DNA of 42,793 nt, from IMG/VR virus record IMGVR_UViG_2667527787_000008, one strand, 5' to 3'. This stretch comes from a virus (taxonomy: Duplodnaviria; Heunggongvirae; Uroviricota; Caudoviricetes). Below the pieces are notes generated by a model. It had not been told where the DNA came from and did not search any database. It saw only the letters and a program-made list of their open reading frames with translations. Positions 2,835-42,793 of this stretch are shown here, one piece after another (the stretch's first letter is position 1; the number at the start of each line of letters is the position of its first letter). The translations under genes were made by a program, and so were the position numbers.

Positions 2835-5800
2835 TTATGCCTGAGTACGCAGCGCTTCAAGGCGGCGCAGGTCGAAGTCGTTCAGTTCGTCGGTGTAGTC
2901 AGCAGTGATTGGCGCTGGCCATTCACCTGTGTCGAATCCGGTTGCGATATTGCGCATCGCTTTGCGGTACTCGAGCATACCCAGCTCCAGTAGTTCAGCG
3001 GATGCCTCGATGATGGCGATCCAGTGGTAGTTCTCGTCTTTGTTGACGAAAATCCAGAAGAACTGATCCAGCGCTGCGGTTTCGCAGTACATAGCCGCGC
3101 TCAGGTGATAATCACGTTCAATAATTTCCCGGTGTAGCCTGGCGCGCAGGCTTTCCTGCTTAACATTCCACATGCTGATGGTTTTCAGGTCAGCACCGAT
3201 ACGCACGCCGTCTAGGTCGATCTCAAGGTCAGGGCGCACACGAACTTCCAGTCCCGTCTCCTCGTCAAAGCCAAAGTAGCTCACCTCAACGGCGCGGCTC
3301 GGGTGGGTTAGCAGCATGCCTGCGGTCGGGTGCGAGAGCAGTGCTGACTGAATTGCCTGCGCGGTGGCAAGTTGCTGGTGGGTAACCAGCACTTTCCCTT
3401 CCGGGTTGTTGCGCCACGCATCGAGCAGCTCGTCGGCGAACACTGCATCTGGTTTGACTGCCTTCACGGCCTGAATCAGATCGGCCTTCGTGCCAGAGAC
3501 TTTCAGCGGTTGCAGCTTCTGAGCTTCCTGCGCGACCAGGTCAGGATTGATAATCGCAAGTTGTTCGAGTAGTGCGTCGCGGCTGCCGCTGGTTTTAATC
3601 TGCGCTGGCAGGGTGGCGTTGTACTCTTTGATGCACGCCTTCATTGCTGTTGCTGTCTTCTTCTGATCTGCATCGATACGTTGGAATTCAGCTGGCAGCG
3701 CCATATAGTTCTGCGCCGTTTCATCCAGGCTAGCGCCCAGCGGCACCAGCGCTGGCAGGGTGGCGTTGTATTCATCCAGCAAAGCTTTGATATCGTCTGC
3801 GCTCAGTTGCGCTGGCAGGCTGGCGTTGTACTCATCAATAAACGCGCGGATCGTTGCCGTGGTGGTAAATGCACCTTCCGGAATTACGGGTTCAACGCTA
3901 AATTCTTCATCGAGCTGTTCTGGCTGCAACGCCAGCGCATGTACCAGGTTTCCCATGTCCAGCACTGAGGAGCGCTCTTTGACGATGGTTTTCTCAACGT
4001 GGCGCGCATTGAAGTACATCAGCGAAACGCGCGCATCTTTTACCTGGGTGGAACTGATGCCGTTGGCAGCGTGGTAAACCTCGTTCGGCAGACCTTCATA
4101 GCGCCCAGGCTCGAAGTAATCGGGGTAAAAAACAGCTTGTTCGTCAGATTGCGCCTCTGGCTCGACGTGTGCCAAAACTGGTTCAGTCTGGTTTACAGAA
4201 TCGCTATTTTGAGCGACAGATTCCGTATTTTGGTTTACATCGGCCTGCTGGCCGGGATGTGACTCTTCACCAGTTTCCAGACTGCTTTCGCCTGACTGCA
4301 TTTCATTACCAACATTTTTTTCATCACTGACAGTTTCTTGAACCTGCACATTGCTGGTGGTTTCCGTAGCCTGTTTCGTGCCATGAGTTGCTGAGTTCTG
4401 CAGTAAAGCCGTAACATCGAATATTCCGTTGCCGACATTTTTAACCAGTTCTTGTTCGGCTTTATGTGGTTGTGCTGTCGCTTCCTCTGCGCGGCGGCGT
4501 GCTTCTTCTTCACGTACGCGTTGCAGGTTCTCTTCGTGAGTGCAGAAGGGTTTGCGTGGAGACTCCTTACTTTCAGGTTGGGGAATTTCCTGTGTTGCGG
4601 GCTCAGCTTCATGCAATGGCAATAACTCAACAGCAGCATTAAACGCAGCAGTCATGGTCCGGTTAACAAACTCCAGGTGAGCGACAGGAGTTAGATGAAT
4701 ATTTTCCGGCGCGATACGTATCAGGTTAAAAATAGCTGTGCGGTTAACGCCAAGAACGCCGGGTTGATTGCGCAGAATGCTGCTCCATGATTTCCACGGT
4801 TCTTCTTTTTTGGTCACGATTTCTTTAGCGCGACGAAGAATGCTGCCCGGGATCTCGAAGTGGTTGAAGTCCATAGGCAGAAGGGCACATGCAATCTCTA
4901 AATCGAGAGTGTCAAGGGTATGGTATGCATCAGGTCCACGGTCAGTGACGTAACCGCCGTTGGCATTGGTTCCGGAATCAGTACGCTGAACACTACTGAT
5001 GTGATTACCGGCAGCCCATTCACGCGCCAGGATGCCACGGTCAATGTAATCAGTCGCCGCCCACATTCTGGTGAAACGGAGTACCAGCGCGAGTTCGTGA
5101 CGCTTGTCCTGGCTGAACACTTTGCGAATGGCATCGGTGTAGCGCCACAGGTCTTTGGTGTCGTAACCCTTCACGTCCGGGCAGTTCTCAGCAGCTAACA
5201 GCAAGTTCTGGACGTAACTGTTATCAGTGTCCATCTCCAGCGCGCCGATAGCTTCGTACTCTTCGCGGGTTACGTGGTGGCGCAGTTCGTCGGCGGTGAA
5301 CTGGGAAAGCAGTTGCTTACGAAACGGCATCTGCACTACCGGGTAGAGGGTTGAGTCGTCGTCGTGTTCGTCCAGCGTGATGCCAGCGGTTTCTGGCAGC
5401 GTTGACTCAGTAGTTATGTGACTATCAACGGTCTGAGCCGTTTTCTCGTCAGAGTTTTCAGCTGTGACTTTTGGCATCCAGGTGCGGTCATCGTTCTGCA
5501 GTTCGTAGCGTTTGCACCAGGTGTAATCCACTGCGCCTTCTTCCGGCAGGTCGTCATATACCGGGAAATCGGTGCGGATTGGTTTGGCATAATCTTTACC
5601 GCGGCCAGTTTCTTCAATTCCGGCTTCTTCCAGTGCCACATCGAGTTGGAGATTGGCGCGCGCTACACTTTTCGCAGTGAACCAAATCACTGCATCTTTC
5701 TTGCCAGACTTCTGACTGGCTTTTATCAGATGGAAAAATTCCATGTGAGATCCTCTTTTTTGAGTGTTAGAATCCCCGGGCCAGAGATAGCGCCCATTGG

Positions 5801-6519: not shown

Positions 6520-6580
6520 ATCACTGGTTTATATATGTGTCAACTTAAGGTTAGTGTTAATTGTAAATCTGAGGTTTATG
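6520..6580. promoter_or_regulatory. Putative leftward operator/promoter region (oL-like) with GGTTTAT repeats
   Basis: Motif TAAATCTGaGGTTTA at about 6564-6578 recurs in the repressor/cro intergenic region; second GGTTTAT at about 6526-6532. Confidence 0.3.
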
Positions 6581-6617
6581 TGGCTGGGTTTTGTGACACG
6601 TCTGCAGAATCGCAGGC

Positions 6618-6645
6618 AAAAAAAATCCCGACGCGTGGTCGGGAT
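6618..6645 (-). terminator. Rho-independent terminator closing the repressor-linked operon
   Basis: 7 bp GC-rich stem (TCCCGAC / GTCGGGA) with 5 nt loop, followed on the minus strand by a run of 8 U. Confidence 0.55.
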
Positions 6646-6717
6646 GAGAAGGTTCGGGGAAGGCGACAGAGTTAGTAGCTGAGAGCCTTATAACTCAGGC
6701 GTATTGACCAAATCTGA

Positions 6718-7239
6718 CTAAAAGAAGTGCATAAAAGCTTTGTACAGCCCTGTACCAATGGCGATAATCGCAGGGACACCTAAGAGAATCGCCAATTTAG
6801 CATCAGAGATTTTCTTGTCCACTGTGTCTGATGAGGGCTTTTTGTCTACAGACTCTTTGATACTAGACAGCCTCTCCAAAACTACAGCCATATTTTTGTC
6901 CAGTGAATTCACTGTCGTATCAACTTTTGAAACTGTGTTTTTTATCTCGGCAACATCTTTCTTGATGTGGGCAACTTCAACCTCAAGAATAGCCAATCTC
7001 TTTTCCATGTCGTCACCTCCATCTTCAGTTGACGTATGAATGATTTCAGTATCATCCATAGCAACTGATGTGACAATCCGTTTTTGTTTATCCGAAGCGG
7101 CAAAACTACAAGCACCCATAAGGAAGGTTGCTTGGCTCGAAGCTACTGATGAAAACTCTAAGCCTACTGTAGCTCCGCTATGGTCTGAATATGCAATCAA
7201 TAACTTCCCTTCACCAAGAGATGATTGAGCCGCATCCAT
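6718..7239 (-). CDS. Tail-anchored coiled-coil membrane protein (173 aa), candidate exclusion/abortive-infection effector
   Basis: ATG at 7239; central heptad-like region (EKRLAILEVEVAHIKKDVAEIKNTV...), C-terminal hydrophobic helix LAILLGVPAIIAIGTGLY; low GC; follows the 93 aa gene after a double TAA stop. Confidence 0.5.
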   Translation of the reverse strand: MDAAQSSLGEGKLLIAYSDHSGATVGLEFSSVASSQATFLMGACSFAASDKQKRIVTSVAMDDTEIIHTSTEDGGDDMEKRLAILEVEVAHIKKDVAEIKNTVSKVDTTVNSLDKNMAVVLERLSSIKESVDKKPSSDTVDKKISDAKLAILLGVPAIIAIGTGLYKAFMHFF

Positions 7240-7245
7240 CAATTA

Positions 7246-7527
7246 TTATTCCTCAAACATACTTTTTAAGGATTGATAAAAATCATAAGCCTTTTGTTTG
7301 CTTAAAGTCACAGACACAACTTTGGTTCGCTGCATGCCCTTGACGACTATATCCGCATTATCCGTACCGATGATCGGGCTGCTATTCAGGAACACAAAAT
7401 TGTAAACTTCGTAACCGGCATTTTGTGTGCCGATTGTTACGACACCGTCAGCATTGGTCTCGATGAAATTTTTCGCTTCGATTACATCATTAAGATGCAT
7501 AAGTTCGACGGTTGTTTCTTTAGACAC
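7246..7527 (-). CDS. Hypothetical 93 aa protein, first gene of the repressor-linked cassette
   Basis: GTG start with GGAGGA ribosome-binding site 64 nt downstream of the repressor stop; same strand; low GC; no recognisable motif. Confidence 0.5.
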   Translation of the reverse strand: MSKETTVELMHLNDVIEAKNFIETNADGVVTIGTQNAGYEVYNFVFLNSSPIIGTDNADIVVKGMQRTKVVSVTLSKQKAYDFYQSLKSMFEE

Positions 7528-7591
7528 CGAATCCTCCAGAAGATATTAAATCTTGAAATATTTTTATTACATGGAATTAGATACTACTGGT

Positions 7592-7981
7592 TTAGGTTTG
7601 CTCACCTTGCGATCGAATCCGACCCTTCATGTACTTCTCGTACAGCTCATCTAACTCTTTCAGGCGAAGCGCAAAAATGCGGAGCATGTTCTGCTGCTCT
7701 TCTTCCGGTAACTGGCGGTAGAGCTCGAGCAAACGCTGTTCGTCCGGTTTGAGACCGTCTTTCTCCCCAACGTCTTCACCGAGTAGCCAGGCGACAGAAA
7801 TACCAACAGCGTCGGCTATGGCCAGTGCCGATTTCTTACTAATCACGCCTTTTTTGAACCAGCCGTTTACGGCCTGAGGGGTGACTCCAGCTATTCTTGC
7901 CATGTCTGCTTTGGTAACGCCGCGATCAGTGATCTCAGTAAGGCGCTCCACCAGAACGAGGTTGGGTTCTTCTTTTCTCAT
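7592..7981 (-). CDS. Prophage repressor, DicA-like Cro/C1-type HTH protein (129 aa)
   Basis: HTH segment TKADMARIAGVTPQAVNGW; C-terminal LLELYRQLPEEEQ... resembles DicA; the ORF-track N-terminal extension to 8251 is rejected; divergent from the cro-like gene. Confidence 0.7.
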   Translation of the reverse strand: MRKEEPNLVLVERLTEITDRGVTKADMARIAGVTPQAVNGWFKKGVISKKSALAIADAVGISVAWLLGEDVGEKDGLKPDEQRLLELYRQLPEEEQQNMLRIFALRLKELDELYEKYMKGRIRSQGEQT

Positions 7982-10607: not shown

Positions 10608-11165
10608 ATGACAACTAACAACCACCCGGCGCACGGTCCTGTATCACTTGATCGCTTGCACCAGATACGCGAAATACTCAGCAAAGCAGCAGCACAAAGC
10701 GACGGCGGTAATCTCGGCTACGCAATGGCTGATGCAGTGAAGGTGATTGATGGGGTTCTGGAGTCGATAGCCCGTGAGCAGGTACGCTGTGAACATGCAG
10801 CATGGTCAGATGAAACATTCGGCGATGTCGGTCCAGTTGGTCCGCTGAAGCACCTTTCCAAAGAAGCTATCGAGGCTGCTGCGGAACCAGACGAGATGAG
10901 CGAATGGGCTGACATGCAATTCCTGTTATGGGATGCGCAACGTCGTGCCGGTATCAGTGATAAGCAGATTACCCTGGCGATGGTAGAAAAGCTGGCGGTT
11001 AACAAAAACCGCCAGTGGCCAGAGCCGAAAGACGGTGAACCGCGACTGCATATCAAAGCGCAGTCAGAATCGGTGCTTCCTGGAATTGAATGCGATATCT
11101 GCGGACATGTATCTACTGACCCAGAGGGACGGCACTACTACTGCGAGGATAACAGTAATGATTGA
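10608..11165 (+). CDS. DUF550-like protein (dATP/dGTP pyrophosphohydrolase-type domain) with C-terminal Cys cluster
   Basis: 185 aa; motif HLSKEAIEAAAEPDEMSEWADMQFLLWDAQRRAGIS...NKNRQWPEP resembles the DUF550 nucleotide pyrophosphohydrolase domain common in prophage nin regions. Confidence 0.5.
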   Translation: MTTNNHPAHGPVSLDRLHQIREILSKAAAQSDGGNLGYAMADAVKVIDGVLESIAREQVRCEHAAWSDETFGDVGPVGPLKHLSKEAIEAAAEPDEMSEWADMQFLLWDAQRRAGISDKQITLAMVEKLAVNKNRQWPEPKDGEPRLHIKAQSESVLPGIECDICGHVSTDPEGRHYYCEDNSND

Positions 11166-11337
11166 TAAATACCGTTTGGAGAATATGCGACGCGAAAGCG
11201 GCGAAAAGGGAGAACTCGGGACATGCCGTTTGAAGGTGACATGCATAATGCCCTAGTCGATGCGAAACATCAGGCTATGTATGTCTCAGCCATCTGGAAG
11301 CTGCTAATCATCACCCCAGATAACAGCGAGGCATAAC

Positions 11338-11539
11338 ATGACTGAGCAACCTGATGATCTCCTCACTCCGGGCGAGGTATGCCAGAAGCTGGGAATTACG
11401 CAAAAAACATTATGTAAATGGAATACAGAACACCGACACCGGTCTACATTGGCCCCGTGTAAAGTTCAGCGCTAAGATTGTTCGCTATGAGCGCCGTAGC
11501 ATAGAAGCTTTTATCCAGAAATGCCGGAGCCAATATTGA
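11338..11539 (+). pseudogene. AlpA-like HTH regulator split by an apparent +1 frameshift (pseudogene or sequencing error)
   Basis: Frame 1 from ATG about 11338: MTEQPDDLLTPGEVCQKLGITQKTLCKW... stops at about 11475; frame 2 (track ORF 11354..11539) carries the matching C-terminus GLHWPRVKFSAKIVRYERRSIEAFI. Confidence 0.35.
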
Positions 11540-11579
11540 TCTAATGTGGGGCTATTGTTTTTTAACAAATGCCCCTCAT

Positions 11580-11960
11580 TTAACTTTTTTGTGTGTTAAG
11601 TCCAATTCTGACTCCACACATAAAATCACCAATACCTGCGCCAACACTGTTCCCATCAGCAACATAATCACCTTTGAAAGCTAATTTCCCATCCATATAG
11701 AAGAATCTTATCTCCCCATATCCACTATCACAGTCGGCATCTTTAATACTAACTTTGTAGTACTCTACTTTTTTATTTTTTGTTTGATACATGAACAAGG
11801 CAGATGAATCACCTTTTACATTTCTAAATGTGCCTTTTTTTGCTGAAAAAATGCCATCATCAGCTGTAGTAACCTCAACCCAGTTACTTGTCGTTTCAGC
11901 AAAAGCAACACTTGCAACAAAAAGAGCAGAAAAGCCCAGTAATGCGATTTTCTTAGCCAT
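11580..11960 (-). CDS. Secreted (Sec signal peptide) small protein, low-GC moron
   Basis: ATG at 11960; signal peptide MAKKIALLGFSALFVASVAFA then mature domain of about 105 aa with 2 Cys; AT-rich codon usage. Confidence 0.55.
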   Translation of the reverse strand: MAKKIALLGFSALFVASVAFAETTSNWVEVTTADDGIFSAKKGTFRNVKGDSSALFMYQTKNKKVEYYKVSIKDADCDSGYGEIRFFYMDGKLAFKGDYVADGNSVGAGIGDFMCGVRIGLNTQKS

Positions 11961-12090
11961 AAACAATATTCCATTTATTTAGGATTTTTCTTGATTCTAT
12001 CTGTGTTTTAAATAACGTTCAACTACACACCGCATGCCTTCTTAAATGGGCATGGAGAGCCATTCAACCCCGTAGCTTTAGCAACGCAAC

Positions 12091-12273
12091 TTGCGCGAGA
12101 ATGTTCCGCTTTTAAGTCGCAGCGAGACAAGACTCATGAGTAACATAAAGTTAACCCGCTACGTCGGTTTTTCACTCTCTATTGTATATGCTATTTTTTA
12201 TGCAATAAGAGCGATTCGTAGGACTCTTCTGGGGAAGGTATGGATTCAACAATCGACGAAGAAAAACGCATAG
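12091..12273 (+). CDS. Possible small hydrophobic peptide ORF
   Basis: Internal ATG at about 12136 gives a 45 aa peptide with one predicted TM helix (YVGFSLSIVYAIFYAI); weak ribosome-binding site. Confidence 0.2.
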   Translation: MRENVPLLSRSETRLMSNIKLTRYVGFSLSIVYAIFYAIRAIRRTLLGKVWIQQSTKKNA

Positions 12274-12437
12274 AATTTGAAAAATTCATCATTGAAAGGT
12301 TTGGTGATGCAGTTAATCTCCGCAGAGCGAAAAATGGCGGTAATGGATATATATCATGGGAGGCGGCTGTCGCATGGATTGTCTGGAGGGAGCGCTCATC
12401 CCATCATGAAGCAACGCCTACCTCTGACGGGAACTGA
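12240..12437 (+). CDS. Hypothetical small protein, low-GC island
   Basis: 65 aa ORF MDSTIDEEKRIEFEKFIIERFGDAVNLRR..., protein-like composition. Confidence 0.3.
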   Translation: MDSTIDEEKRIEFEKFIIERFGDAVNLRRAKNGGNGYISWEAAVAWIVWRERSSHHEATPTSDGN

Positions 12438-12621
12438 ATTAGTATGGTGCTGCCCGGAGCATCCTGTCATTCACTATGTACTCCCGCTTAGCCACGTCAT
12501 TTTAGATTTGATTTTGGTCCACCATGAGCGAGAAGCGGACCTAGAGAGGCGTTGGTACCGCGAACATGGTCACAGCAAAGCCAGAGCTATTTGGTTGCTC
12601 CGAACAGAATATTTTAGTTAG
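12409..12621 (+). CDS. Hypothetical small protein (overlaps the previous ORF in another frame; possible frameshifted single gene)
   Basis: ATG at about 12409 within track ORF 12277..12621; MKQRLPLTGTELVWCCPEHPV... Confidence 0.2.
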   Translation, partial: KQRLPLTGTELVWCCPEHPVIHYVLPLSHVILDLILVHHEREADLERRWYREHGHSKARAIWLLRTEYFS

Positions 12622-12660
12622 GGCTCGGAACGAGACTGTCGTGAAAACCTTATGTCTCTT

Positions 12661-13224
12661 CTATCCTGCATCTTCTTCGACATTGTATTTTCGTTGCTCA
12701 ATATCCCATGGAAGCGCAGGTTGTTTGCGAACTAGTTTTCTTTTGCCGTTTGAGAAAAAATAAGTTCTGAGTTCTAAAAAATGGCGGCGTTTTTTCGTTT
12801 GAGGCTCATAGGTGATAAGAAAAAAAATCAAAGGCCTGCTTGCTTCACTCCATATTCTACTTGCTTTTTCAATAACAATATTGATGTTTTCATGCTGACA
12901 ATATGAGATGAATGTGGAGAAATAGCACTTGTCGTTTTTTTCAAGCAGTTTGTCTAACTCGTTAACGCTATCTCTGTCTGCCTGATTATACTCCCACTCA
13001 ACATAGGTTAAAATTTGATTGTCTGGATATTGTAGGACCGCATCGGTACGCCCGCCTTGTTCAAAAAATGTTCTTGCGCCCATTAACTTTGCACACTCGC
13101 GCATGACCAGGCCAACATGAATGGTCCAGTTGGAACGGTTGATATATTCACCTTTGAACACAGGGAAATCTTGATACCACACACAATTAAACAGACAGAT
13201 AAAATCGCGCTCTACTCGCTTCAA
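12661..13224 (-). CDS. Hypothetical 187 aa protein, low-GC moron (TTG start; internal ATG alternative)
   Basis: Long ORF in an AT-rich island between the replication/nin genes and dinI-like gene; no recognisable family. Confidence 0.4.
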   Translation of the reverse strand: MKRVERDFICLFNCVWYQDFPVFKGEYINRSNWTIHVGLVMRECAKLMGARTFFEQGGRTDAVLQYPDNQILTYVEWEYNQADRDSVNELDKLLEKNDKCYFSTFISYCQHENINIVIEKASRIWSEASRPLIFFLITYEPQTKKRRHFLELRTYFFSNGKRKLVRKQPALPWDIEQRKYNVEEDAG

Positions 13225-13456
13225 CGCCTCCCCCCCATTTTTTCAATAGATGATTTTTAAACTGATAAGCAATATCTCATATCGGCTATTTGTTACTAGA
13301 CTTTAGGATTTTAATATCTGTGTTCCGATTAATGTGCTTCAGGTTGTTAATTCGGATTGATTTCACCTCTTATCACTTATCCATAGCTGATTTATCTACC
13401 ATGAAGTGAACAAAGCCCACTCACAGCACTAACCACTCCTTTGCTGATTGAAAAAG

Positions 13457-13570
13457 ATGAATGCAAGTTGGATAACGCTTTGCCTCATGGTCATACAGGT
13501 GCTCATTGATGATGCGATACAGAGGGCGAATCTCTCGGGATTGTGCCGGCAGAAAGAAATTGCCGCTTAA
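13457..13570 (+). CDS. Candidate small membrane peptide (37 aa)
   Basis: Hand-translated MNASWITLCLMVIQVLIDDAIQRANLSGLCRQKEIAA with one hydrophobic helix; intrinsic terminator 17 nt downstream. Confidence 0.3.
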   Translation: MNASWITLCLMVIQVLIDDAIQRANLSGLCRQKEIAA

Positions 13571-13586
13571 TATAACACTGCTAATT

Positions 13587-13612
13587 CAACCCGCTACGGC
13601 GGGTTTTCTTTT
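13587..13612 (+). terminator. Rho-independent terminator
   Basis: Hairpin AACCCGC-TACG-GCGGGTT followed by TTTCTTTTTTT. Confidence 0.5.
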
Positions 13613-13677
13613 TTTACAACTGACAGAAAATTAACAATTTGTGCTCTTAAAACGTTGATCATTTCCGCGCATAGGTA

Positions 13678-13697
13678 TACTGTATAAAAACACAGTA
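13678..13697. promoter_or_regulatory. LexA (SOS) box upstream of the DinI-like gene
   Basis: TACTGTATAAAAACACAGTA matches the CTGT-N8-ACAG consensus, about 20 nt upstream of the start. Confidence 0.6.
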
Positions 13698-13715
13698 CAT
13701 GCAATGGGGGCCATT

Positions 13716-13949
13716 ATGAAAGTTGAATTAACCATTGATCGCATGAAAGAACTTCCTAAAGGCGCAGTACCAGCACTGGAGAAAGAACTGCTTAAGCGCC
13801 TGAATGATCACTATGACAATTGCAGGCTCACAATCCGCCGTGCCGGGGCCGATGGGTTAAGTGTTTTTGGTGGTGACAAGGACGATAAAAAGAAAATTGA
13901 ATCAATCCTCCAGGATACCTGGGAAAGCGCTGACGACTGGTTTTATTAG
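13716..13949 (+). CDS. dinI: DinI-like DNA-damage-inducible protein
   Basis: MKVELTIDRMKELPKGAVPALEKEL...LSVFGGDKDDKKKIESILQDTWESADDWFY aligns along its length with E. coli DinI; LexA box upstream. Confidence 0.75.
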   Translation: MKVELTIDRMKELPKGAVPALEKELLKRLNDHYDNCRLTIRRAGADGLSVFGGDKDDKKKIESILQDTWESADDWFY

Positions 13950-14066
13950 AATTGCGCTTAAGGCTGGCGCGCATTTTTCAGAATACCGCAATTTGCGTAA
14001 CCCTCTGATGCTGCTGCCGACAATCTTTAATCGCGTCTGTTAGTCGCTCGAAGGGAGAACATAAAT

Positions 14067-14315
14067 GTGAGTGATTCAGCTTTGCAAACGTCAGAAGACA
14101 ACTGGTATGACATTGTAAGAAGGTCTGACGGCTGCGTGGTGTTTAGCTTTCCTTCATCGGGCAGGCATCTAATTTATCGCGTCAATGGCATGGTTTCTAT
14201 GCGGCCTTTGCTGGATGATGAAGAGGTCTTTACTCCTAATGGTTTTATGCAGTTTATTAACCGTCTCGGCTACCGGGTAACCCAACCTTCTGATAATATG
14301 AAATCAACGGTCTGA
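14067..14315 (+). CDS. Hypothetical nin-region protein
   Basis: 82 aa ORF, GTG start with GGGAGA ribosome-binding site. Confidence 0.35.
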   Translation: MSDSALQTSEDNWYDIVRRSDGCVVFSFPSSGRHLIYRVNGMVSMRPLLDDEEVFTPNGFMQFINRLGYRVTQPSDNMKSTV

Positions 14316-17495: not shown

Positions 17496-18031
17496 TGGCT
17501 GACAGATCAAAGCTTAGCGCTGCGGTATTAGGTCTTATCCTCGCCGGTGCGTCAGCGCCCGTTATTCTCGATCAGTTCCTGAATGAGAAGGAAGGCAACA
17601 GCCTGATTGCTTATCAGGACGGTGGCGGCGTCTGGACTATTTGCCGCGGCGCCACGCTGGTAGATGGTAAACCAGTTCGCCAGGGCATGAAGCTGACGCA
17701 GGCCAAATGTGACCAGGTGAATGCCGTTGAGCGAAATAAAGCGCTGGCCTGGGTTGAACGCAATATCAGGGTGCCGCTGACCGAACCGCAAAAGGCCGGA
17801 ATAGCTTCTTTCTGCCCGTATAACATCGGGCCCGGTAAGTGCTTCCCCTCGACGTTCTATAAGCGCATCAATGCCGGTGACCGTAAAGGGGCATGCGAAG
17901 CGATCCGCTGGTGGATAAAAGATGGCGGCCGGGATTGCCGGCTAACCAAGGGGCAGAAGAACGGATGCTTCGGTCAGGTGGAACGCCGCGACCAAGAAAG
18001 CGCGTTGGCATGCTGGGGGCTCGATAAATGA
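17495..18031 (+). CDS. SAR endolysin (lysozyme with N-terminal signal-arrest-release domain)
   Basis: GTG start overlapping the holin stop; hydrophobic Gly/Ala-rich N-terminus then lysozyme-like domain; follows the pinholin as in phage 21/DLP12. Confidence 0.8.
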   Translation: MADRSKLSAAVLGLILAGASAPVILDQFLNEKEGNSLIAYQDGGGVWTICRGATLVDGKPVRQGMKLTQAKCDQVNAVERNKALAWVERNIRVPLTEPQKAGIASFCPYNIGPGKCFPSTFYKRINAGDRKGACEAIRWWIKDGGRDCRLTKGQKNGCFGQVERRDQESALACWGLDK

Positions 18032-18420
18032 AAGCTCGTCACATCATTGCGATTGCCATATTCCTCCTTTGCCTGTTCGGCGGGGCGTGCTGGTCGGCAT
18101 GGTATTACAGCGACAAAGCCAGTAGCGAAAAGGAGCGGGCCGATAGCGCAGAACAGCAGGCTGAGACCGCGAATGCTGTCACCGCGAACGTGATTCGGGC
18201 CGTGAGTATCATCAACGCCATTTCAGAGGCGAACCAGAATGCAAAGAACAAGATCGCACTGGAGTCACAGAGAGCCCAGGCAGATATCAAAGTGGCTGTT
18301 GCGGATGATGATTGCGCTCGTCGGCCTGTGCCTGCTGCAGCTGCTAACCGGCTGCGGGAATACGCGGACAGTTTACGTGCAGGCGCCGGTGGTGCCCCTG
18401 CCGGCGAACCTGACAGCTGA
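18028..18420 (+). CDS. Rz-like inner-membrane spanin
   Basis: 130 aa, N-terminal TM helix, coiled-coil periplasmic domain; start overlaps the endolysin stop. Confidence 0.7.
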   Translation: MKARHIIAIAIFLLCLFGGACWSAWYYSDKASSEKERADSAEQQAETANAVTANVIRAVSIINAISEANQNAKNKIALESQRAQADIKVAVADDDCARRPVPAAAANRLREYADSLRAGAGGAPAGEPDS

Positions 18421-18976: not shown

Positions 18977-19067
18977 AGTGTCAACGCTATGGACAAACTC
19001 ATCTTTATGGCTACATCCCCCGGAGGGGATGCGTAAAAGGCTTAAGAAAAATGATTTTGAAAAATGC

Positions 19068-19328
19068 TTATTGTGCTCTGCCTAGTAGAGCAGCGACTCT
19101 CTCGTTTAATTTTTCTAGGTATCCATCTTTAGCGGGAATGTCGAATTCGATGGGGTCGGCCTTAGAAACCCCTTCTAAATAAACATCTCCGAGGTGAGTT
19201 TCTTTCCCCACAACTCCGTTTAAAGCCGTTGATAATACAGCAATAGCAACACGAGAAGCGTGGCTGTGTAACTGTAACTCTTCAACCAAATCCTCAAGAT
19301 GGGCAATTCTTTTTTCTACATCTGACAT
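19068..19328 (-). CDS. Hypothetical antisense moron protein (86 aa)
   Basis: Minus-strand ORF between the lysis and packaging modules; N-terminal coiled-coil-like segment; lower GC than flanks. Confidence 0.45.
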   Translation of the reverse strand: MSDVEKRIAHLEDLVEELQLHSHASRVAIAVLSTALNGVVGKETHLGDVYLEGVSKADPIEFDIPAKDGYLEKLNERVAALLGRAQ

Positions 19329-19464
19329 AGTCGTTCCTTTGCATCAAAGTTCTTAGGGTTGAAACATGACACTTGTATAGAAGCAAAATAATTTTTGCCG
19401 CTAATACTTCGTCATTTTCAATGGTTACTATCGCCTCGTTTATTGGAATATTCCAGAGAGTTTT

Positions 19465-35332: not shown

Positions 35333-35685
35333 AAAAAATACTTTTTTTGGTTTCTTTAGCATTCGTCAGTTTTTCTTCTACAGCGGCAAACACCGCTTAT
35401 ATGAAGTGTGGTCCCTTTACTTTCTCAACCTCATCAAGCAACGACGGATATCCGAGGATAAACGGAGCAAAGCCTGATAGTCAGAAGGTGACATTCCTCA
35501 AAAAAGAGGGAGATTATGACAATATTAAAATGCAATGGATTGTCATGAATGAGAATTCTGGGCAGCGCTATGGTCTTGATTATATAAAACGCAATGGGAG
35601 AGGGATACTCAATGCCGAGGCCATCAGAATGAACATGAATGAACCTCGAGTGTTTGGAACTTACGACTGCGTGAAGGCTAAGTAA
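35329..35685 (+). CDS. Secreted small protein (signal peptide, 2 Cys), low-GC moron coupled to the baseplate hub gene
   Basis: ATGA overlap with the hub stop; MKKILFLVSLAFVSFSSTAA signal peptide; AT-rich relative to flanks. Confidence 0.55.
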   Translation: MKKILFLVSLAFVSFSSTAANTAYMKCGPFTFSTSSSNDGYPRINGAKPDSQKVTFLKKEGDYDNIKMQWIVMNENSGQRYGLDYIKRNGRGILNAEAIRMNMNEPRVFGTYDCVKAK

Positions 35686-35692
35686 TTTAATA

Positions 35693-35712
35693 AAGGCGCC
35701 GGAACTACCGGC
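35693..35712. terminator. Hairpin between convergent moron genes (putative bidirectional terminator)
   Basis: GCGCCGG-AACTAC-CGGCGC stem-loop; U-rich on the minus-strand side. Confidence 0.35.
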
Positions 35713-35718
35713 GCTCAG

Positions 35719-36069
35719 TTACTCGTCTTTAAAACTTATAATTTTGTACTGCTCCAGTACTTCTGAAAGCTCCTTTGATGTCAGATTTTGTATTTCGATC
35801 GTACCTTTTTCAGTGGTTACCGTTATTTTTTTTGATGATCTGGTCTGTAACCATTTTCTCGCTATCGATGCAATGGCGATACAAGCTGGTGATGATGTGA
35901 TAACGGTAATAGATATTTCGAGAATTGTGCCAATAGCGCCAGGAGAATCACCCGTTCTGACTCTTTTACTTACTACATAGTCATTAGCGGGTATGTTATC
36001 CTGGATTACAGGAAGTAACTCTTTCCAAATAGCTGGAGTAAATTTTATGGTTGTTTCTGATTTTGGCAT
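35719..36069 (-). CDS. Hypothetical antisense moron protein (116 aa) inside the baseplate operon
   Basis: ATG at 36069; AT-rich; convergent with the secreted-protein gene; no recognisable family. Confidence 0.45.
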   Translation of the reverse strand: MPKSETTIKFTPAIWKELLPVIQDNIPANDYVVSKRVRTGDSPGAIGTILEISITVITSSPACIAIASIARKWLQTRSSKKITVTTEKGTIEIQNLTSKELSEVLEQYKIISFKDE

Positions 36070-36249
36070 AAAGGTTTCAGGCCCCTATCGAGAGAAGCTA
36101 AAAATTGCCTACCGGCTTTTCCTTAGCAGCCTGTATCTTGCTACAAATCACGACGTTACCGTGGTTCTAAGCAAAACCTATATTAAGAGCTGCAATGAAG
36201 ATAAATAGCACGCATTAACTCACCCTCAAATCCTGACATTTGATCAGTA

Positions 36250-39953: not shown

Positions 39954-40555
39954 TGGTGAAAGCAAAATTAAACAGTGCGTTTATTGCCACCGTGGCAGGT
40001 GAAATCACTGTGTACAACTACCGGGGCGACACCCGCGAATACATATCCTCATCGGTTGAGTATCTGCCTGTGGGGGTGGGTATTCCTGCCAATTCCTGTA
40101 CCGATGCGCCCGGCACACATAAAGCTGGTTATGCAATCTGCCGTTCTGCAGATTTTAACTCATGGGAATATGTGCCAGACCATCGCGGTGAAACGGTATA
40201 TAGCACTGAAACAGGAGAATCAAAAGAAATCACAGCTCCGGGTGATTACTCTGAAAATACAACTACTATCGCCCCGTTAACGCCATTCGATAAATGGGAT
40301 GGTGAGAAATGGGTGACCGATACTGAGGCACAGCATAGCGCCGCAGTAGACGTGGCAGAAGCACAGCGCCAGTCGCTGATTGATGCTGCTATGGCTTCCA
40401 TCAGTCTGATTCAGCTGAAATTGCAGGCCGGGCGGCAACTGACGCAAGCAGAAATCACTCGCCTTAACGCTGTGCTGGATTACATTGACACGGTGACGGC
40501 AACAGATACCAGCACCGCGCCGGATGTCATCTGGCCTGAACTGCCGGAGGCGTAG
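39953..40555 (+). CDS. Tail fibre assembly protein (Tfa)
   Basis: 200 aa; C-terminal motif LNAVLDYIDTVTATDTSTAPDVIWPELP typical of the tail fibre assembly family. Confidence 0.7.
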   Translation: MVKAKLNSAFIATVAGEITVYNYRGDTREYISSSVEYLPVGVGIPANSCTDAPGTHKAGYAICRSADFNSWEYVPDHRGETVYSTETGESKEITAPGDYSENTTTIAPLTPFDKWDGEKWVTDTEAQHSAAVDVAEAQRQSLIDAAMASISLIQLKLQAGRQLTQAEITRLNAVLDYIDTVTATDTSTAPDVIWPELPEA

Positions 40556-40970
40556 GCCATTCAATATCTGGAGCACTGGAGGTATCAACCAGTTCCAGTG
40601 CGTCCAGATAATCCAGCCACAAATTATATTGCGCCAGTTCCTCACTTTTCAGACGACCAATCGCCGCTTTGCCAGGCCACTGATGAGTATTGATGTAGGT
40701 ATTGACTTCAGAAACCAAAGATATTTTTTTCATTTCAGCCGTCAACACCTCATCCTCTTTTGAAGGGGGTGGGGAATTAATCCATACTGGCCGTCCTGAA
40801 CTGTCAGCGCCAATTTCTTTCCCTTCTGGATGCAGCCCAAGAAATTGCTCATATGTTTCTCTGGTAATTTCAATAACATCATCAGGAAGCGTTCCCGCAT
40901 CCTCATATTCTGGAAACAATTCTTGCAGATAAAAACTTTTACTTCCGGGTGAAAAGAATACTGAGTTCAT
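40527..40970 (-). CDS. Alternative tail fibre assembly protein (Tfa-prime) within the invertible segment
   Basis: 147 aa; C-terminal LWLDYLDALELVDTSSAPDIEWPTPP paralogous to Tfa; convergent with and overlapping tfa. Confidence 0.65.
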   Translation of the reverse strand: MNSVFFSPGSKSFYLQELFPEYEDAGTLPDDVIEITRETYEQFLGLHPEGKEIGADSSGRPVWINSPPPSKEDEVLTAEMKKISLVSEVNTYINTHQWPGKAAIGRLKSEELAQYNLWLDYLDALELVDTSSAPDIEWPTPPAVQAR

Positions 40971-40972
40971 TC

Positions 40973-41425
40973 TTACCGTCCAATGATTAATGCTGAGACG
41001 CTGGTATCTGAAGGAAAGGCTGCATTCAGTGGTTTGTCGACTTTGAACACAATCGTATTATTCCCCCTGACAGCGGCAAAAGAACAAACCGCAGTCGCGT
41101 ATGAACCTGTAATATTACTGGATACACCACCATAAGCTGTTGTTGATACCAGAGGGATAACGCCCAGCACCTTATTAGGAAATACAAAGGGCAATGTGGC
41201 TGTGGCAATATAAGACTTATTAGAACCTGTAATGGCATAAGCATTATCAGTCATTCCATTCATCGCCACCGGGCCGCTTATACTTACAGTAACCATCTGA
41301 ATGATTAGCCCGTCAGGTTGACGAATCACAAAATTTCCATTGCCACCAGTAACCGTCCAGAAAGACATATCAGGGATTTGGTTTTCCCCGTTGCCCACAT
41401 TCCGTTTTGCCGCTTCTCCCAAACC
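40973..41425 (-). CDS. Promoterless alternative tail-fibre C-terminal segment (Sv-prime)
   Basis: Begins with GLGE encoded by GGTTTGGGAGAA, the same as the current junction in the expressed fibre; Gly/Thr/Ser-rich fibre-like composition. Confidence 0.6.
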   Translation of the reverse strand, partial: GLGEAAKRNVGNGENQIPDMSFWTVTGGNGNFVIRQPDGLIIQMVTVSISGPVAMNGMTDNAYAITGSNKSYIATATLPFVFPNKVLGVIPLVSTTAYGGVSSNITGSYATAVCSFAAVRGNNTIVFKVDKPLNAAFPSDTSVSALIIGR

Positions 41426-41439
41426 AACCTTTTTTATAA
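41414..41439. other. Right crossover site of the invertible segment (gix/hix-like)
   Basis: TTCTCCCAAACC-AA-CCTTTTTTATAA resembles Hin/Gin crossover sites; about 60 bp upstream of the invertase start. Confidence 0.5.
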
Positions 41440-41498
41440 CCATCAAAAATCTGGTGATGCTTCGCCGTTTCTCCTGTTTTCATAACAGGAGAAATCCC

Positions 41499-42047
41499 AT
41501 GATTTACGGTTATGCCCGAGTATCAACAAACCACCAGGACACTGAATTGCAACTAACGGCGCTCAAGTCAGCGGGTTGTGAGAAAATTTTTGAAGAGCAT
41601 GCCAGCGGGAGGAAATCGAATCGGCCGGTTCTAAAACGGCTGATCGCCACTATGCAGCCGGGGGATGAACTGGTGGTCTGGAAGCTGGACAGGATAGGCC
41701 GCAACGTTCTGCATGCGCTGTTGATGTTCCAGCAGTTACAGGAAAAGGGTATCAACTTCCGCAGTATTACCGATGGCGTGGATCTCAAAACAGCCAGCGG
41801 CCGCTATAACTTTCGTAACATCCTTTCCGCAGCACAATATGAATCTGATCTTAATAGCGAACGTACCTTAGCAGGGCTGGCCGTAGCCAGGGCAAAAGGG
41901 CGAGTTGGTGGTCGCAGGCCTAAGTTCACGGATGAGCAATGGCGGGAAATGGGGGAGCGGATGGCAACCGGTGAATCACGACAAAGCGTATCAAAAACGT
42001 ATGGAGTAGGGCTCTCAACTCTGTATAAAAAGTTTCCAGCTAGCTGA
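41499..42047 (+). CDS. Serine DNA invertase (Pin/Gin/Hin/Cin family)
   Basis: 182 aa MIYGYARVSTNHQDTELQLTALKSAGCEKIFEEHASG... with catalytic Ser in YARVST and C-terminal HTH; adjacent to the invertible segment. Confidence 0.85.
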   Translation: MIYGYARVSTNHQDTELQLTALKSAGCEKIFEEHASGRKSNRPVLKRLIATMQPGDELVVWKLDRIGRNVLHALLMFQQLQEKGINFRSITDGVDLKTASGRYNFRNILSAAQYESDLNSERTLAGLAVARAKGRVGGRRPKFTDEQWREMGERMATGESRQSVSKTYGVGLSTLYKKFPAS

Positions 42048-42067
42048 TAACGGGAAAGAAACAGAGA

Positions 42068-42105
42068 AGGGCACAAATATTGTGTACTTTAATGTGCCCT
42101 TTAAT
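42068..42105. terminator. Putative bidirectional terminator between invertase and yciI; probable prophage right boundary region
   Basis: Stem AGGGCACA / TGTGCCCT with long loop, T-rich on both sides. Confidence 0.3.
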
Positions 42106-42165
42106 TTATTGATTGGTGGTTGAATTGTCCGTAACTTTTTGATTTAAGTGCAAATTTCTAATAAA

Positions 42166-42462
42166 TTAGAACGCTTTCTTAAATGGTTTCACTGAAACGT
42201 GTTCATAGACTCCTGCCGCTACGTACGGGTCAGCATCGGCCCAGGCCTGAGCTGCTTCCAGCGATTCAAATTCAGCAATAACGGTTGAGCCAGTAAATCC
42301 CGCAGCCCCTGGATCGTTACTGTCTACCGCTGGCATTGGACCAGCTGTCAACAAACGACCTTCATCATGCAGTAACTGTAAACGTGCTAAATGTGCCGGA
42401 CGAACGGAAAGGCGTTTTTCGAGGCTATCAGCTTTGTCTTGAGCGTAAATAACATACAACAC
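42166..42462 (-). CDS. yciI: YciI-like protein (chromosomal)
   Basis: About 98 aa from GTG with AGGAG ribosome-binding site; adjacent to and divergent from tonB as in E. coli. Confidence 0.6.
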
Positions 42463-42604
42463 GGGCACAACTCCTTGTTCGGGAAAGTTGTAAAGTACGT
42501 TATTTGAAAGGGCGAAGATCTGCAACGGAAAGATGATGTCTTTGTTAAGGCCATGCATAAAGTAAGGGTAATTACGCCAAAAATGACATTTTCACTGATC
42601 CTGA

Positions 42605-42650
42605 TCGTCTTGCCTTATTGAATATGATTGCTATTTGCATTTAAAATCGA
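42605..42650 (+). promoter_or_regulatory. tonB promoter region with Fur-box-like sequence
   Basis: TTGAATATGATTGCTATTTGCATTTAAAATCGAGA upstream of the tonB start, AT-rich iron-box-like repeats. Confidence 0.4.
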
Positions 42651-42685
42651 GACCTGGTTTTTCTACTGAAATGATTATGACTTCA

Positions 42686-42793
42686 ATGACCCTTGATTTA
42701 CCTCGCCGCTTCCCCTGGCCGACGTTACTTTCGGTCTGCATTCATGGTGCTGTTGTGGCGGGTCTGCTCTATACCTCGGTACATCAGGTTATT
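42686..42793 (+). CDS. tonB: TonB, N-terminal fragment (truncated by the window end)
   Basis: Translation MTLDLPRRFPWPTLLSVCIHGAVVAGLLYTSVHQVI matches the TonB N-terminal anchor. Confidence 0.85.
   Translation, partial: MTLDLPRRFPWPTLLSVCIHGAVVAGLLYTSVHQVI

Follow-up and report, generated by a model that had tools for sequence, protein, structure and literature searches.

The 42,793-nt viral record IMGVR_UViG_2667527787_000008 (the window, by which we mean this whole stretch of DNA) is a complete Rac-like lambdoid prophage, extending from the integrase through a Pin-type recombinase. Here we describe its interval 11540-13650, bounded by a DUF550 / dATP-dGTP pyrophosphohydrolase gene and dinI. 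This interval, with the replication/early genes of the prophage on one side and the LexA-boxed dinI on the other, is a hotspot of cargo exchange, and it holds two mutually independent, reverse-strand, single-gene cassettes amid pseudogene debris: cassette A, encoding a predicted secreted protein of 126 amino acids (aa), and cassette B, encoding a protein of 187 aa with a predicted nuclease fold. We estimate at roughly 55% the probability that the two stacked cassettes are both expressed in the lysogen, the product of B being a candidate stand-alone anti-phage nuclease, and that of A, an envelope factor. The island itself is ordinary prophage biology, and the family of the 187 aa protein is its noteworthy part.

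Two low-GC cassettes in one slot

The GC content of the interval 11540-13650 is 0.405, compared to the mean of 0.528 for the window (sd 0.061, computed in 400 bp windows), and the lowest 400 bp value in the whole 42.8 kb (0.35) falls inside it. The sharp GC drop reported in the initial annotation of this DNA is therefore real, while the single island of about 2 kb described there is better seen as two cassettes with separate histories, plus pseudogene debris. In particular, the drop is bimodal, with dips at ~11450-12200 and ~12650-13700, and with GC of 0.45-0.51 at ~12200-12650. The two dips coincide with the two minus-strand open reading frames (ORFs), the GC content of the two cassette genes being 0.365 and 0.399.

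Of 5,426 complete E. coli genomes, only 3 contain the full interval, which no deposited phage genome has, and related prophages hold other contents in the same slot (see below), consistent with accessory cargo in a nin-type region, as initially suggested. An assembly chimera is unlikely, since three complete genomes and many viral contigs agree. The features of moron-type accessory cargo observed here are the deviant GC, the minus-strand orientation against the plus-strand early operon, and the presence/absence polymorphism of the slot; the evidence for separate promoters consists of a consensus match in cassette A and of upstream conservation in cassette B.

Family, fold and predicted active site of the 187 aa protein

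Cassette B comprises the following features.

12661-13224, minus strand: coding sequence of cassette B, 187 aa, with a TTG start preceded by GGGGGGAGG; predicted BamHI-type PD-(D/E)xK nuclease
12522-13422, minus strand: mobile unit of cassette B, i.e. the coding sequence with ~140 bp downstream and ~200 bp of conserved upstream DNA, presumed to be regulatory

The ORF had been listed in the initial annotation as a minus-strand 187 aa orphan. RefSeq calls it too at 12661-13224, but the protein belongs to a conserved family, with length-conserved homologs and strong purifying selection, the ratio of nonsynonymous to synonymous substitution rates (dN/dS) being 0.05-0.06 against enterobacterial homologs at dS of 0.33-1.8. 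Homologs of conserved length are found in Pantoea and in about 17 Pseudomonas species at 52-96% identity, and distant ones, at 31-37% identity, in Dehalococcoidia and in one Bathyarchaeia metagenome-assembled genome. A profile search of 1.84 billion cluster representatives yielded 185 relatives, nearly all of them single-domain proteins of 185-215 aa. Identical copies of the proteins of cassettes A and B are each encoded on over 700 contigs, mainly of E. coli and the Citrobacter freundii complex.

Every source annotates the 187 aa protein as a hypothetical protein. It had no match among Pfam, PHROG, PADLOC, NCBIfam and PDB sequence profiles, and no known phage housekeeping protein matched it. 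Similarly, none of the 66 family members matched Pfam, NCBIfam or PDB sequences, and the family profiles (A1, A3) compared with all PDB sequences at E up to 10 gave no restriction endonuclease match.

The gene moves together with its upstream region. The segment 12522-13422 has 83% DNA identity to a solitary low-GC insert in Pantoea wallisii (locus L017), and a second copy, located at the tail-fibre end of a different prophage (viral contig L059), matches 12662-13418 at 90% identity, the flanks being unrelated in both cases. The TTG start and ~200 bp upstream of it are conserved among the enterobacterial copies, which suggests that a putative promoter of cassette B lies in this segment. A conserved small ORF upstream of cassette B was considered and rejected, as orf39 matches near-identical copies only.

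The AlphaFold2 (AF2) model of the protein is confident and shows a restriction-endonuclease fold with BamHI as the top match; it contains the alpha-beta-beta-beta-alpha-beta core that defines the PD-(D/E)xK superfamily. In the 66 members, whose identities go down to 22%, no columns other than E55, E76 and E78 are invariant, while D61, H36 and W77 are conserved in at least 90%. In the model D61 opens strand beta2, and E76-W-E78 lies within beta3, which is the canonical placement of the PD-(D/E)xK residues, so that the catalytic motif of the superfamily is present as well as its fold. The active sites of BamHI and OkrAI consist of E77/D94/E111/E113 and E71/D86/E99/E101, respectively, and a glutamate in the last catalytic position is otherwise almost unknown in restriction enzymes (PMC3025578). 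Given the invariant E76-x-E78 and the ExE site of these two enzymes, the family therefore carries the BamHI-type ExE variant. Residue by residue, E55, D61, E76 and E78 would be equivalent to the BamHI active site, forming an E...D...ExE metal-binding site, and the protein is predicted to cleave DNA.

Genomic neighbourhoods of cassette B homologs

The annotation of the prophage includes no methyltransferase, none was found within ±7 kb in eight annotated contexts of cassette B homologs, and none is among the 25 most frequent of the 136 matched neighbour families at 21 further loci. No gene is consistently adjacent to the homologs across clades. A conserved partner or antitoxin gene was accordingly rejected, there being no consistent neighbour and no conserved adjacent ORF. 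In one Pseudomonas subclade (loci L029-L032, ~6558-6869), a 103 aa ORF starting with MMDNAEALKLVDAVF, immediately downstream of the 187 aa homolog and in the same orientation, is a possible clade-specific partner.

These observations bear on the suggestion that cassette B is an orphan Type II BamHI-like enzyme cutting a palindrome, with the methyltransferase unlinked, lost or replaced by that of the host. Its size and fold would fit minimal Type IIP enzymes (OkrAI has 194 aa, BamHI 213 aa), as would the ExE catalytic variant, and a stub of a cytosine methyltransferase gene lies 300 bp away, at 13522-13570. That stub, however, belongs to the conserved phage flank and not to the cassette, no intact methyltransferase accompanies the gene in the prophage or in the eight contexts, no partner is conserved across clades, and the cassette moves alone, which would be lethal for a classical restriction enzyme; we therefore regard this explanation as very doubtful.

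In Gammaproteobacteria, by contrast with more distant lineages, the neighbours are repeatedly defence genes or mobile elements. The homolog is a reverse-strand insert between the small terminase gene and a packaging HNH gene in an HK97-like Pseudomonas prophage; it resides in an integrative and conjugative element (ICE), adjoining the integrase and a SIR2_2 gene; it lies two genes away from a Gabija-type pair of an OLD-TOPRIM ATPase and a UvrD helicase; it shares an island with an SRA-HNH gene, a RES-Xre pair and a predicted pPIWI-associated nuclease; elsewhere it lies beside a gene encoding a TIR-domain protein, or has a WYL regulator with AddAB-like nucleases on one side and SIR2/BrxR on the other. 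When 149 crude neighbour ORFs of the 21 further loci were scanned as a batch, they matched Shedu SduA (3e-302) and a Type IV restriction endonuclease (5e-125), as well as DarT/DarG, PD-T7-1, PD-T7-5, IetA, PDC-M53A/B, and the Mrr_cat and NACHT domains. This recurrent co-location with known defence genes is seen in the gammaproteobacterial branch, and not in Dehalococcoidia or at the Pseudomonas fluorescens-group locus. The defence cargo envisaged in the initial annotation gains ground for the 187 aa gene, from its restriction-endonuclease fold, the conserved catalytic residues and the gammaproteobacterial neighbours in defence islands and mobile elements.

Several observations weigh against a defence nuclease. 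The defence enrichment is a rough count, about 20 of 149 crude ORF calls with no matched background, and is thus indicative rather than a statistic. PADLOC-DB v2 gave no match for the 187 aa protein at E up to 1, with one marginal match among the 66 family members. The spacing between E55 and D61 is 6 residues, compared to 17 in BamHI; the protein has no obvious modification-reading domain; and a consensus scan found no sigma-70 promoter upstream of cassette B. Moreover, the Dehalococcoidia neighbours are housekeeping genes (aminoacyl-tRNA synthetase, PolA, Fpg, purA), the homolog in the P. fluorescens group is syntenic between SDR and cytochrome c genes, and one enterobacterial copy is solitary next to the fdn operon, so that, in view of such contexts, the entire family may play a cellular role. 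The PADLOC match 'RTasPolA' in Dehalococcoidia was dismissed as a defence reverse transcriptase, being most likely the PolA gene also found by Pfam.

Hence the main rival explanation is that cassette B encodes a cellular nuclease for repair, recombination or another housekeeping role, hitch-hiking on mobile elements as neutral cargo or as an aid to phage DNA metabolism. In addition to the Dehalococcoidia context, which includes PolA and Fpg, and to the stable synteny in the P. fluorescens group, the strong purifying selection would fit any conserved enzymatic role, and lambdoid nin regions commonly carry recombination nucleases, RusA being the example in the window. Yet the family is patchily distributed and very small (185 of 1.84 billion cluster representatives), the enterobacterial copies have low GC and occur in unrelated contexts, the gene is reverse-strand, with its own upstream region, outside the phage operon, and the gammaproteobacterial neighbours are repeatedly defence genes or mobile elements. 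We consider a cellular role unlikely here, and give still lower odds to each of the other readings, namely an orphan Type II enzyme, a selfish endonuclease or pure debris.

In the selfish alternative, the nuclease would serve the spread or retention of its own cassette and not the host, either as a homing-type endonuclease that stands alone or as an addiction-module toxin. PD-(D/E)xK homing endonucleases exist, and a single small low-GC gene with ~340 bp of conserved flanks at many unrelated sites is what such an element could look like. The insertion sites, however, lack the common target gene expected for homing, no antitoxin ORF is conserved next to the gene, and in some Pseudomonas lineages it is stably inherited vertically, which leaves this alternative with a poor chance. 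The anti-phage nuclease remains the reading that we prefer for the gammaproteobacterial branch.

Probable exchange of cargo at a duplicated terminator

The module containing cassette B is bracketed by two copies of a repeat that resembles a transcription terminator, next to a remnant of a phage gene.

12148-12173, plus strand: left member of a 26 nt direct repeat pair, in which the terminator hairpin is degenerate and its 3' arm has lost 2 nt; left boundary of the B module
13522-13570, plus strand: what is left of the 3' end of a DNA cytosine methyltransferase gene; the segment homologous to E. coli WEM25, where a methyltransferase pseudogene is annotated, starts at 13522
13583-13615, plus strand: right, intact copy of the 26 nt repeat with a T-run, identified by terminator scan, repeat search and the L080 junction; right boundary of the B module

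The two repeat copies are 85% identical and spaced by 1435 bp, bracketing a B module of 1,435 bp (1.4 kb). The right copy spans 13583-13608, and its hairpin, at 13588-13605, has a folding energy of -12.8 kcal/mol (z = -4.3). Since 13522-13570 is the 3' end of the methyltransferase gene of WEM25, this hairpin with its T-run is best read as the terminator of the lost methyltransferase gene. A small RNA in the non-coding stretch 13225-13620 was considered and dropped, as no Rfam family matched and the stem with the T-run there is read as that terminator; the Rfam scan covered 11000-14200 and matched no RNA family.

Comparison of the same junction in related prophages, proposed in the initial annotation, showed that its contents vary: a tRNA-Ile, a methyltransferase stub or a lipoprotein gene is found there. 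Locus L080 has a single intact hairpin, AACCCGCTTCGGCGGGTT, whose left flank matches 12100-12147 of the window, and the right flank, 13609 onward. In L080-L085, cassette A is located upstream of dinI and cassette B is absent; in L080 cassette A is directly adjacent to dinI. In L081-L085 (e.g. L081:5030-5830, minus strand), the slot contains a small lipoprotein gene, whose product starts with MKKFLLLGMVLPVLSGC, flanked by two terminator-like hairpins, and this different cargo indicates that the slot exchanges cassettes. The slot of E. coli EC23HZZ201 (L015, NZ_CP168035.1) holds a minus-strand tRNA-Ile (4011-4102) and several small hypothetical genes, and that of WEM25, the cytosine-methyltransferase stub only. 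A tRNA search across the window itself found none.

Cassette A encodes a predicted secreted protein of an enterobacterial prophage family

Cassette A has two features of its own.

11580-11960, minus strand: coding sequence of cassette A, 126 aa (ORF and RefSeq call); predicted Sec-secreted periplasmic protein
11994-12022, minus strand: sigma-70-like promoter candidate of cassette A (TTGAAC-17-TAGAAT), a consensus match from the consensus scan

A minus-strand secreted protein with an AFA site had been predicted at 11580-11960, and RefSeq indeed calls the same 126 aa ORF. Its signal peptide comprises residues 1-21 (N-terminus MAKKIALLGFSALFVASVAFA|ETT), with MAKK followed by a 14-residue hydrophobic core and the signal peptidase I site AFA|E; there is no lipobox cysteine. 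The AF2 model (predicted local distance difference test score, pLDDT, of 84) has seven beta-strands and a C-terminal helix. The residues invariant in the family are W27, K41, C77, G80, G82, G91, G103, S105 and C115, of which Cys77 follows beta5 and Cys115 lies in the helix 106-125, and the family motifs are D-C-D-x-G-[YF]-G and D-Y-[VI]-x-x-G-x-S-V. The product is predicted to be a Sec-exported and probably disulfide-bonded, soluble periplasmic protein. A 249 aa relative (P0238) is a tandem duplication of the cassette A domain, with the C-x-x-G-[YF]-G motif and the late cysteine motif retained in each half, in support of the domain being an autonomous folding unit.

The family is confined to Enterobacteriaceae, with 56 clusters at identities down to ~44%, and has no Pfam domain; a wider profile search starting from it reached neither a Pseudomonas member nor an annotated protein. 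It is under purifying selection (dN/dS 0.15-0.2). The minimal mobile unit, delimited by homology in loci L086-88 and L008-12, is ~11560-12023, and this unit occurs alone, at 78-80% identity, at the edges of prophages of Klebsiella aerogenes and other prophages. The family is always prophage-borne, being found at prophage edges, in int-xis gaps and in the present hotspot, and because of this constant association cassette A is a candidate for lysogenic conversion, as a prophage-borne envelope factor. In L080 a low-GC (0.41) lipoprotein gene at 6761-7165, its product starting with MIKFLMLIVVTLTIAGC, directly adjoins the cassette A homolog, and in K. aerogenes a YecR lipoprotein gene is its neighbour; envelope-protein morons tend to cluster with cassette A.

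Two known proteins offer a lead, and only a lead, for cassette A. In Protein E of H. influenzae, a six-stranded sheet is followed by a C-terminal helix tethered by a disulfide to the end of beta4 (PMC6652776). PseM (PA0989) of P. aeruginosa is a muramidase toxin that bears a Sec signal and acts in the periplasm, and its disulfide links Cys87, at the end of beta5, to Cys134 in the next helix (PMC12494544); judging by size and description, PseM and TdeM appear to be the same protein. As in these two proteins, the modelled fold of cassette A is an antiparallel beta-sheet followed by a helix that the conserved cysteine pair could tether to the sheet, and the strand order and disulfide of PseM in particular parallel this model, Sec-dependent export being common to PseM as well. 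By this argument the product of cassette A could be an enzyme or toxin that acts in the periplasm and is related to PseM/TdeM, or else an adhesin-like protein akin to Protein E, instead of a neutral or exclusion-type envelope factor. Still, a Foldseek search with the model gave no significant PDB match, and profile searches against PDB sequences, no true match. Cassette A ends at residue 126, just after the tethered helix, and has no counterpart of PseM residues 145-186, on which the dimer and part of the active site of PseM are built; no intact neighbouring gene corresponds to the adjacent immunity gene of PseM, and a constitutive periplasmic toxin without immunity would harm the lysogen. As for Protein E, it is a lipoprotein with a lipobox, which cassette A lacks. 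We hold such a relationship to be rather improbable.

Anatomy of the slot and the remaining gene debris

Module boundaries were derived from blastn and tblastn comparison of the region with 100 loci. The flanks and remnants, other than those given above, are the following.

10608-11165, plus strand: DUF550 / dATP-dGTP pyrophosphohydrolase gene (Pfam PF04447, E 6.7e-41; RefSeq), left flank
11217-11336, plus strand: 3' stub of a 3'-5' exoribonuclease gene, 37 codons, pseudogene (N-terminus missing according to RefSeq; tblastn, blastn)
11338-11539, plus strand: xis-like helix-turn-helix (HTH) DNA-binding gene (phrog_4745), frameshifted, with PHROG matches split over two frames
11543-11580, both strands: strong terminator-like hairpin between the convergent HTH gene and cassette A, folding energy -17.1 kcal/mol
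12064-12110, minus strand: putative remnant of a tyrosine integrase 3' end, ~46 nt; homology to loci L070-79 and L089 extends to 12110
12240-12437, plus strand: orf65, RefSeq hypothetical protein; matches phrog_660 positions 94-143 of 193, E 6.9e-5
13678-13697, plus strand: consensus-like LexA (SOS) box TACTGTATAAAAACACAGTA, from a pattern search; ~20-40 bp upstream of dinI
13716-13949, plus strand: dinI-family gene (Pfam PF06183, E 4e-26; RefSeq), right flank

The homology of the left flank to other prophages of this family stops at ~11056-11068, and the right flank common to other Rac-like prophages starts at 13522. Between them, 11217-12110 is shared with prophages L070-L079 and L089 at 86-95% identity. 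The donor-type order, seen in L071, is host, integrase, cassette A, intact xis-like HTH gene and full-length exoribonuclease gene; the latter encodes 190 aa (L071, 2597-3169). The HTH gene, a 66 aa protein when intact (L070-L079; L071 and L076 have its two halves in a single frame), is broken in the window by an insertion of 1 nt, an extra T at 11458 in the alignment. The homology stops at 12110, which corresponds to a point within the 3' end of the integrase ORF of L071 (470-1873), and these coordinates suggest that 12064-12110 is an integrase 3' remnant. The hairpin at 11543-11580 has z = -5.1 on the plus and -4.4 on the minus strand, with a T-rich tail after it on the plus strand.

The LexA box at 13678-13697 is the only CTGT-N8-ACAG match in the 42.8 kb window. 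It suggests that the prophage dinI is SOS-regulated, and it is right-flank context, outside the cargo.

The plus-strand small ORFs at 12091-12621, which the initial annotation listed with small hydrophobic peptides, exist as open frames, while their status as genes is unsupported. The orf114 candidate was rejected, since premature stops (S32*, W93*) occur in 10 near-identical copies. The 45/60 aa 'transmembrane peptide' was rejected as well, as its frame passes through the degenerate copy of the terminator and the T-rich tail of that copy, and in L080 has just ~20 codons. The orf65 product is ~46% identical over 41 aa to 101 aa proteins (SfV orf28-like) encoded next to xis-int, and two copies have the nonsense change E12*. 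From these data, orf65 is probably what remains, in decay, of a longer phage gene of the early left operon (phrog_660 / SfV orf28-like).

With five pseudogene fragments around the two minus-strand ORFs, and with the plus-strand ORFs being spurious, one could suppose that the whole region is non-functional, decaying debris in which neither minus-strand ORF works. Both of these ORFs, however, are intact and length-conserved across genera, their dN/dS is 0.05-0.2 at dS up to 1.8, and each exact sequence is found on more than 700 contigs. The selection analysis effectively refutes this explanation.

Other features of the prophage

The gene order of the prophage is integrase, RecET, repressor region, replication genes, nin-type region (DUF1367, DUF1364, RusA, YlcG and Q), lysis, head, contractile tail and Pin-type recombinase. 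In E. coli ES7, a copy of it is integrated between kch and yciI/tonB.

Three further pockets with GC below 0.40 (400 bp windows) are located at ~6900-7650, ~19050-19450 and ~35650-36100. These further pockets overlap minus-strand ORFs, e.g. 6718-7242 (174 aa) and 35719-36069 (116 aa), and may be additional moron-type cargo of the same prophage. In the lysis region, the DUF2570 (spanin-like) gene at 18028-18300 (L001 18729-19001) is a RefSeq pseudogene lacking the C-terminus and overlaps the Rz1-like lysC; the lysis cassette may thus be defective. At ~40277-42793 (L013 3443-5219), two opposed tail-fibre assembly genes beside the Pin-type serine recombinase have the layout of an invertible host-range segment.

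Proposed history and function of the cassettes

In the explanation that we favour, two unrelated low-GC cassettes, each with its own upstream region, have been stacked opposite to the phage early operon, a reverse-strand placement expected to permit expression in the lysogen. Cassette A would have arrived with the int-proximal tail of another prophage, consisting of the exoribonuclease stub, the xis-like HTH gene and the integrase 3' end, which has since decayed. Recombination at the terminator repeat is the probable route by which the 1.4 kb B module was acquired or by which it can be lost. The gammaproteobacterial branch of cassette B most likely acts as a stand-alone, methyltransferase-independent anti-phage nuclease that would protect the lysogen. 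It may discriminate self from non-self by recognizing modified DNA or particular DNA structures, and the conserved TTG start may keep its expression low.

A stronger version of this proposal is that cassette B represents a new family of minimal (~187 aa), single-domain, BamHI-type ExE endonucleases that provide stand-alone, methyltransferase-independent anti-phage defence, tell phage DNA from that of the host with no recognisable sensor domain, and spread as ~0.9 kb single-gene cassettes among prophages, ICEs and defence islands; we put it forward tentatively, at somewhat less than even odds. If it does work as a defence nuclease, the 187 aa protein would be among the smallest single-gene restriction-type systems known, and it would be a puzzle how a bare BamHI-like domain with neither methyltransferase nor sensor spares the host chromosome. 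Cassette B could also serve as a compact new nuclease scaffold. Should the defence idea fail, the locus would be an ordinary moron hotspot with two conserved hypothetical proteins.

Comparison with known systems

The closest structural relatives of cassette B are in the Type IIP group of BamHI, OkrAI, BstYI and BglII. The last catalytic glutamate is shared (E76-W-E78, as E111/E113 in BamHI and E99/E101 in OkrAI), while there is no detectable sequence similarity and no adjacent cognate methyltransferase. Moreover, the N-terminal E-R-D-F helix and the C-terminal QPALPW motif are specific for the cassette B family, and, unlike in this group, the gene moves as a solitary cassette.

In genetic organization, cassette B resembles a recent precedent, the END nucleases, which are methyltransferase-less single-gene restriction-like defence systems of Pseudomonas (PMC12191111). 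In both cases a solitary nuclease gene lacking a methyltransferase and a conserved partner is found in Pseudomonas defence islands. The difference is that END proteins are PLD-family nucleases fused to an inactive EndoIII sensor (PMC12191111), whereas cassette B is a single PD-(D/E)xK domain.

In Type IV enzymes, modifications are generally read by a domain distinct from the nuclease. Cassette B shares with them the absence of a methyltransferase, yet it has no recognisable sensor, and no Pfam reader domain (SRA, EVE, wH and similar) was identified in the 187 aa protein. NucC (CBASS/type III CRISPR), HamA (Hachiman) and Shedu SduA have the same fold, but need partner genes or a cyclic-nucleotide signal, in contrast to cassette B, which has no conserved partner and matches no PADLOC model.

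Finally, lambdoid prophages carry morons such as lambda bor and lom. Like these, cassettes A and B are single genes of deviant GC with their own upstream region, an independent orientation and presence/absence among related prophages. Unlike in typical morons, two cassettes from different sources are stacked here, one with the decayed int-proximal tail of its donor and the other bracketed by a duplicated terminator. The locus is thus an unusually clean case of the assembly of a prophage cargo hotspot, with cassettes probably swapped at a duplicated terminator.

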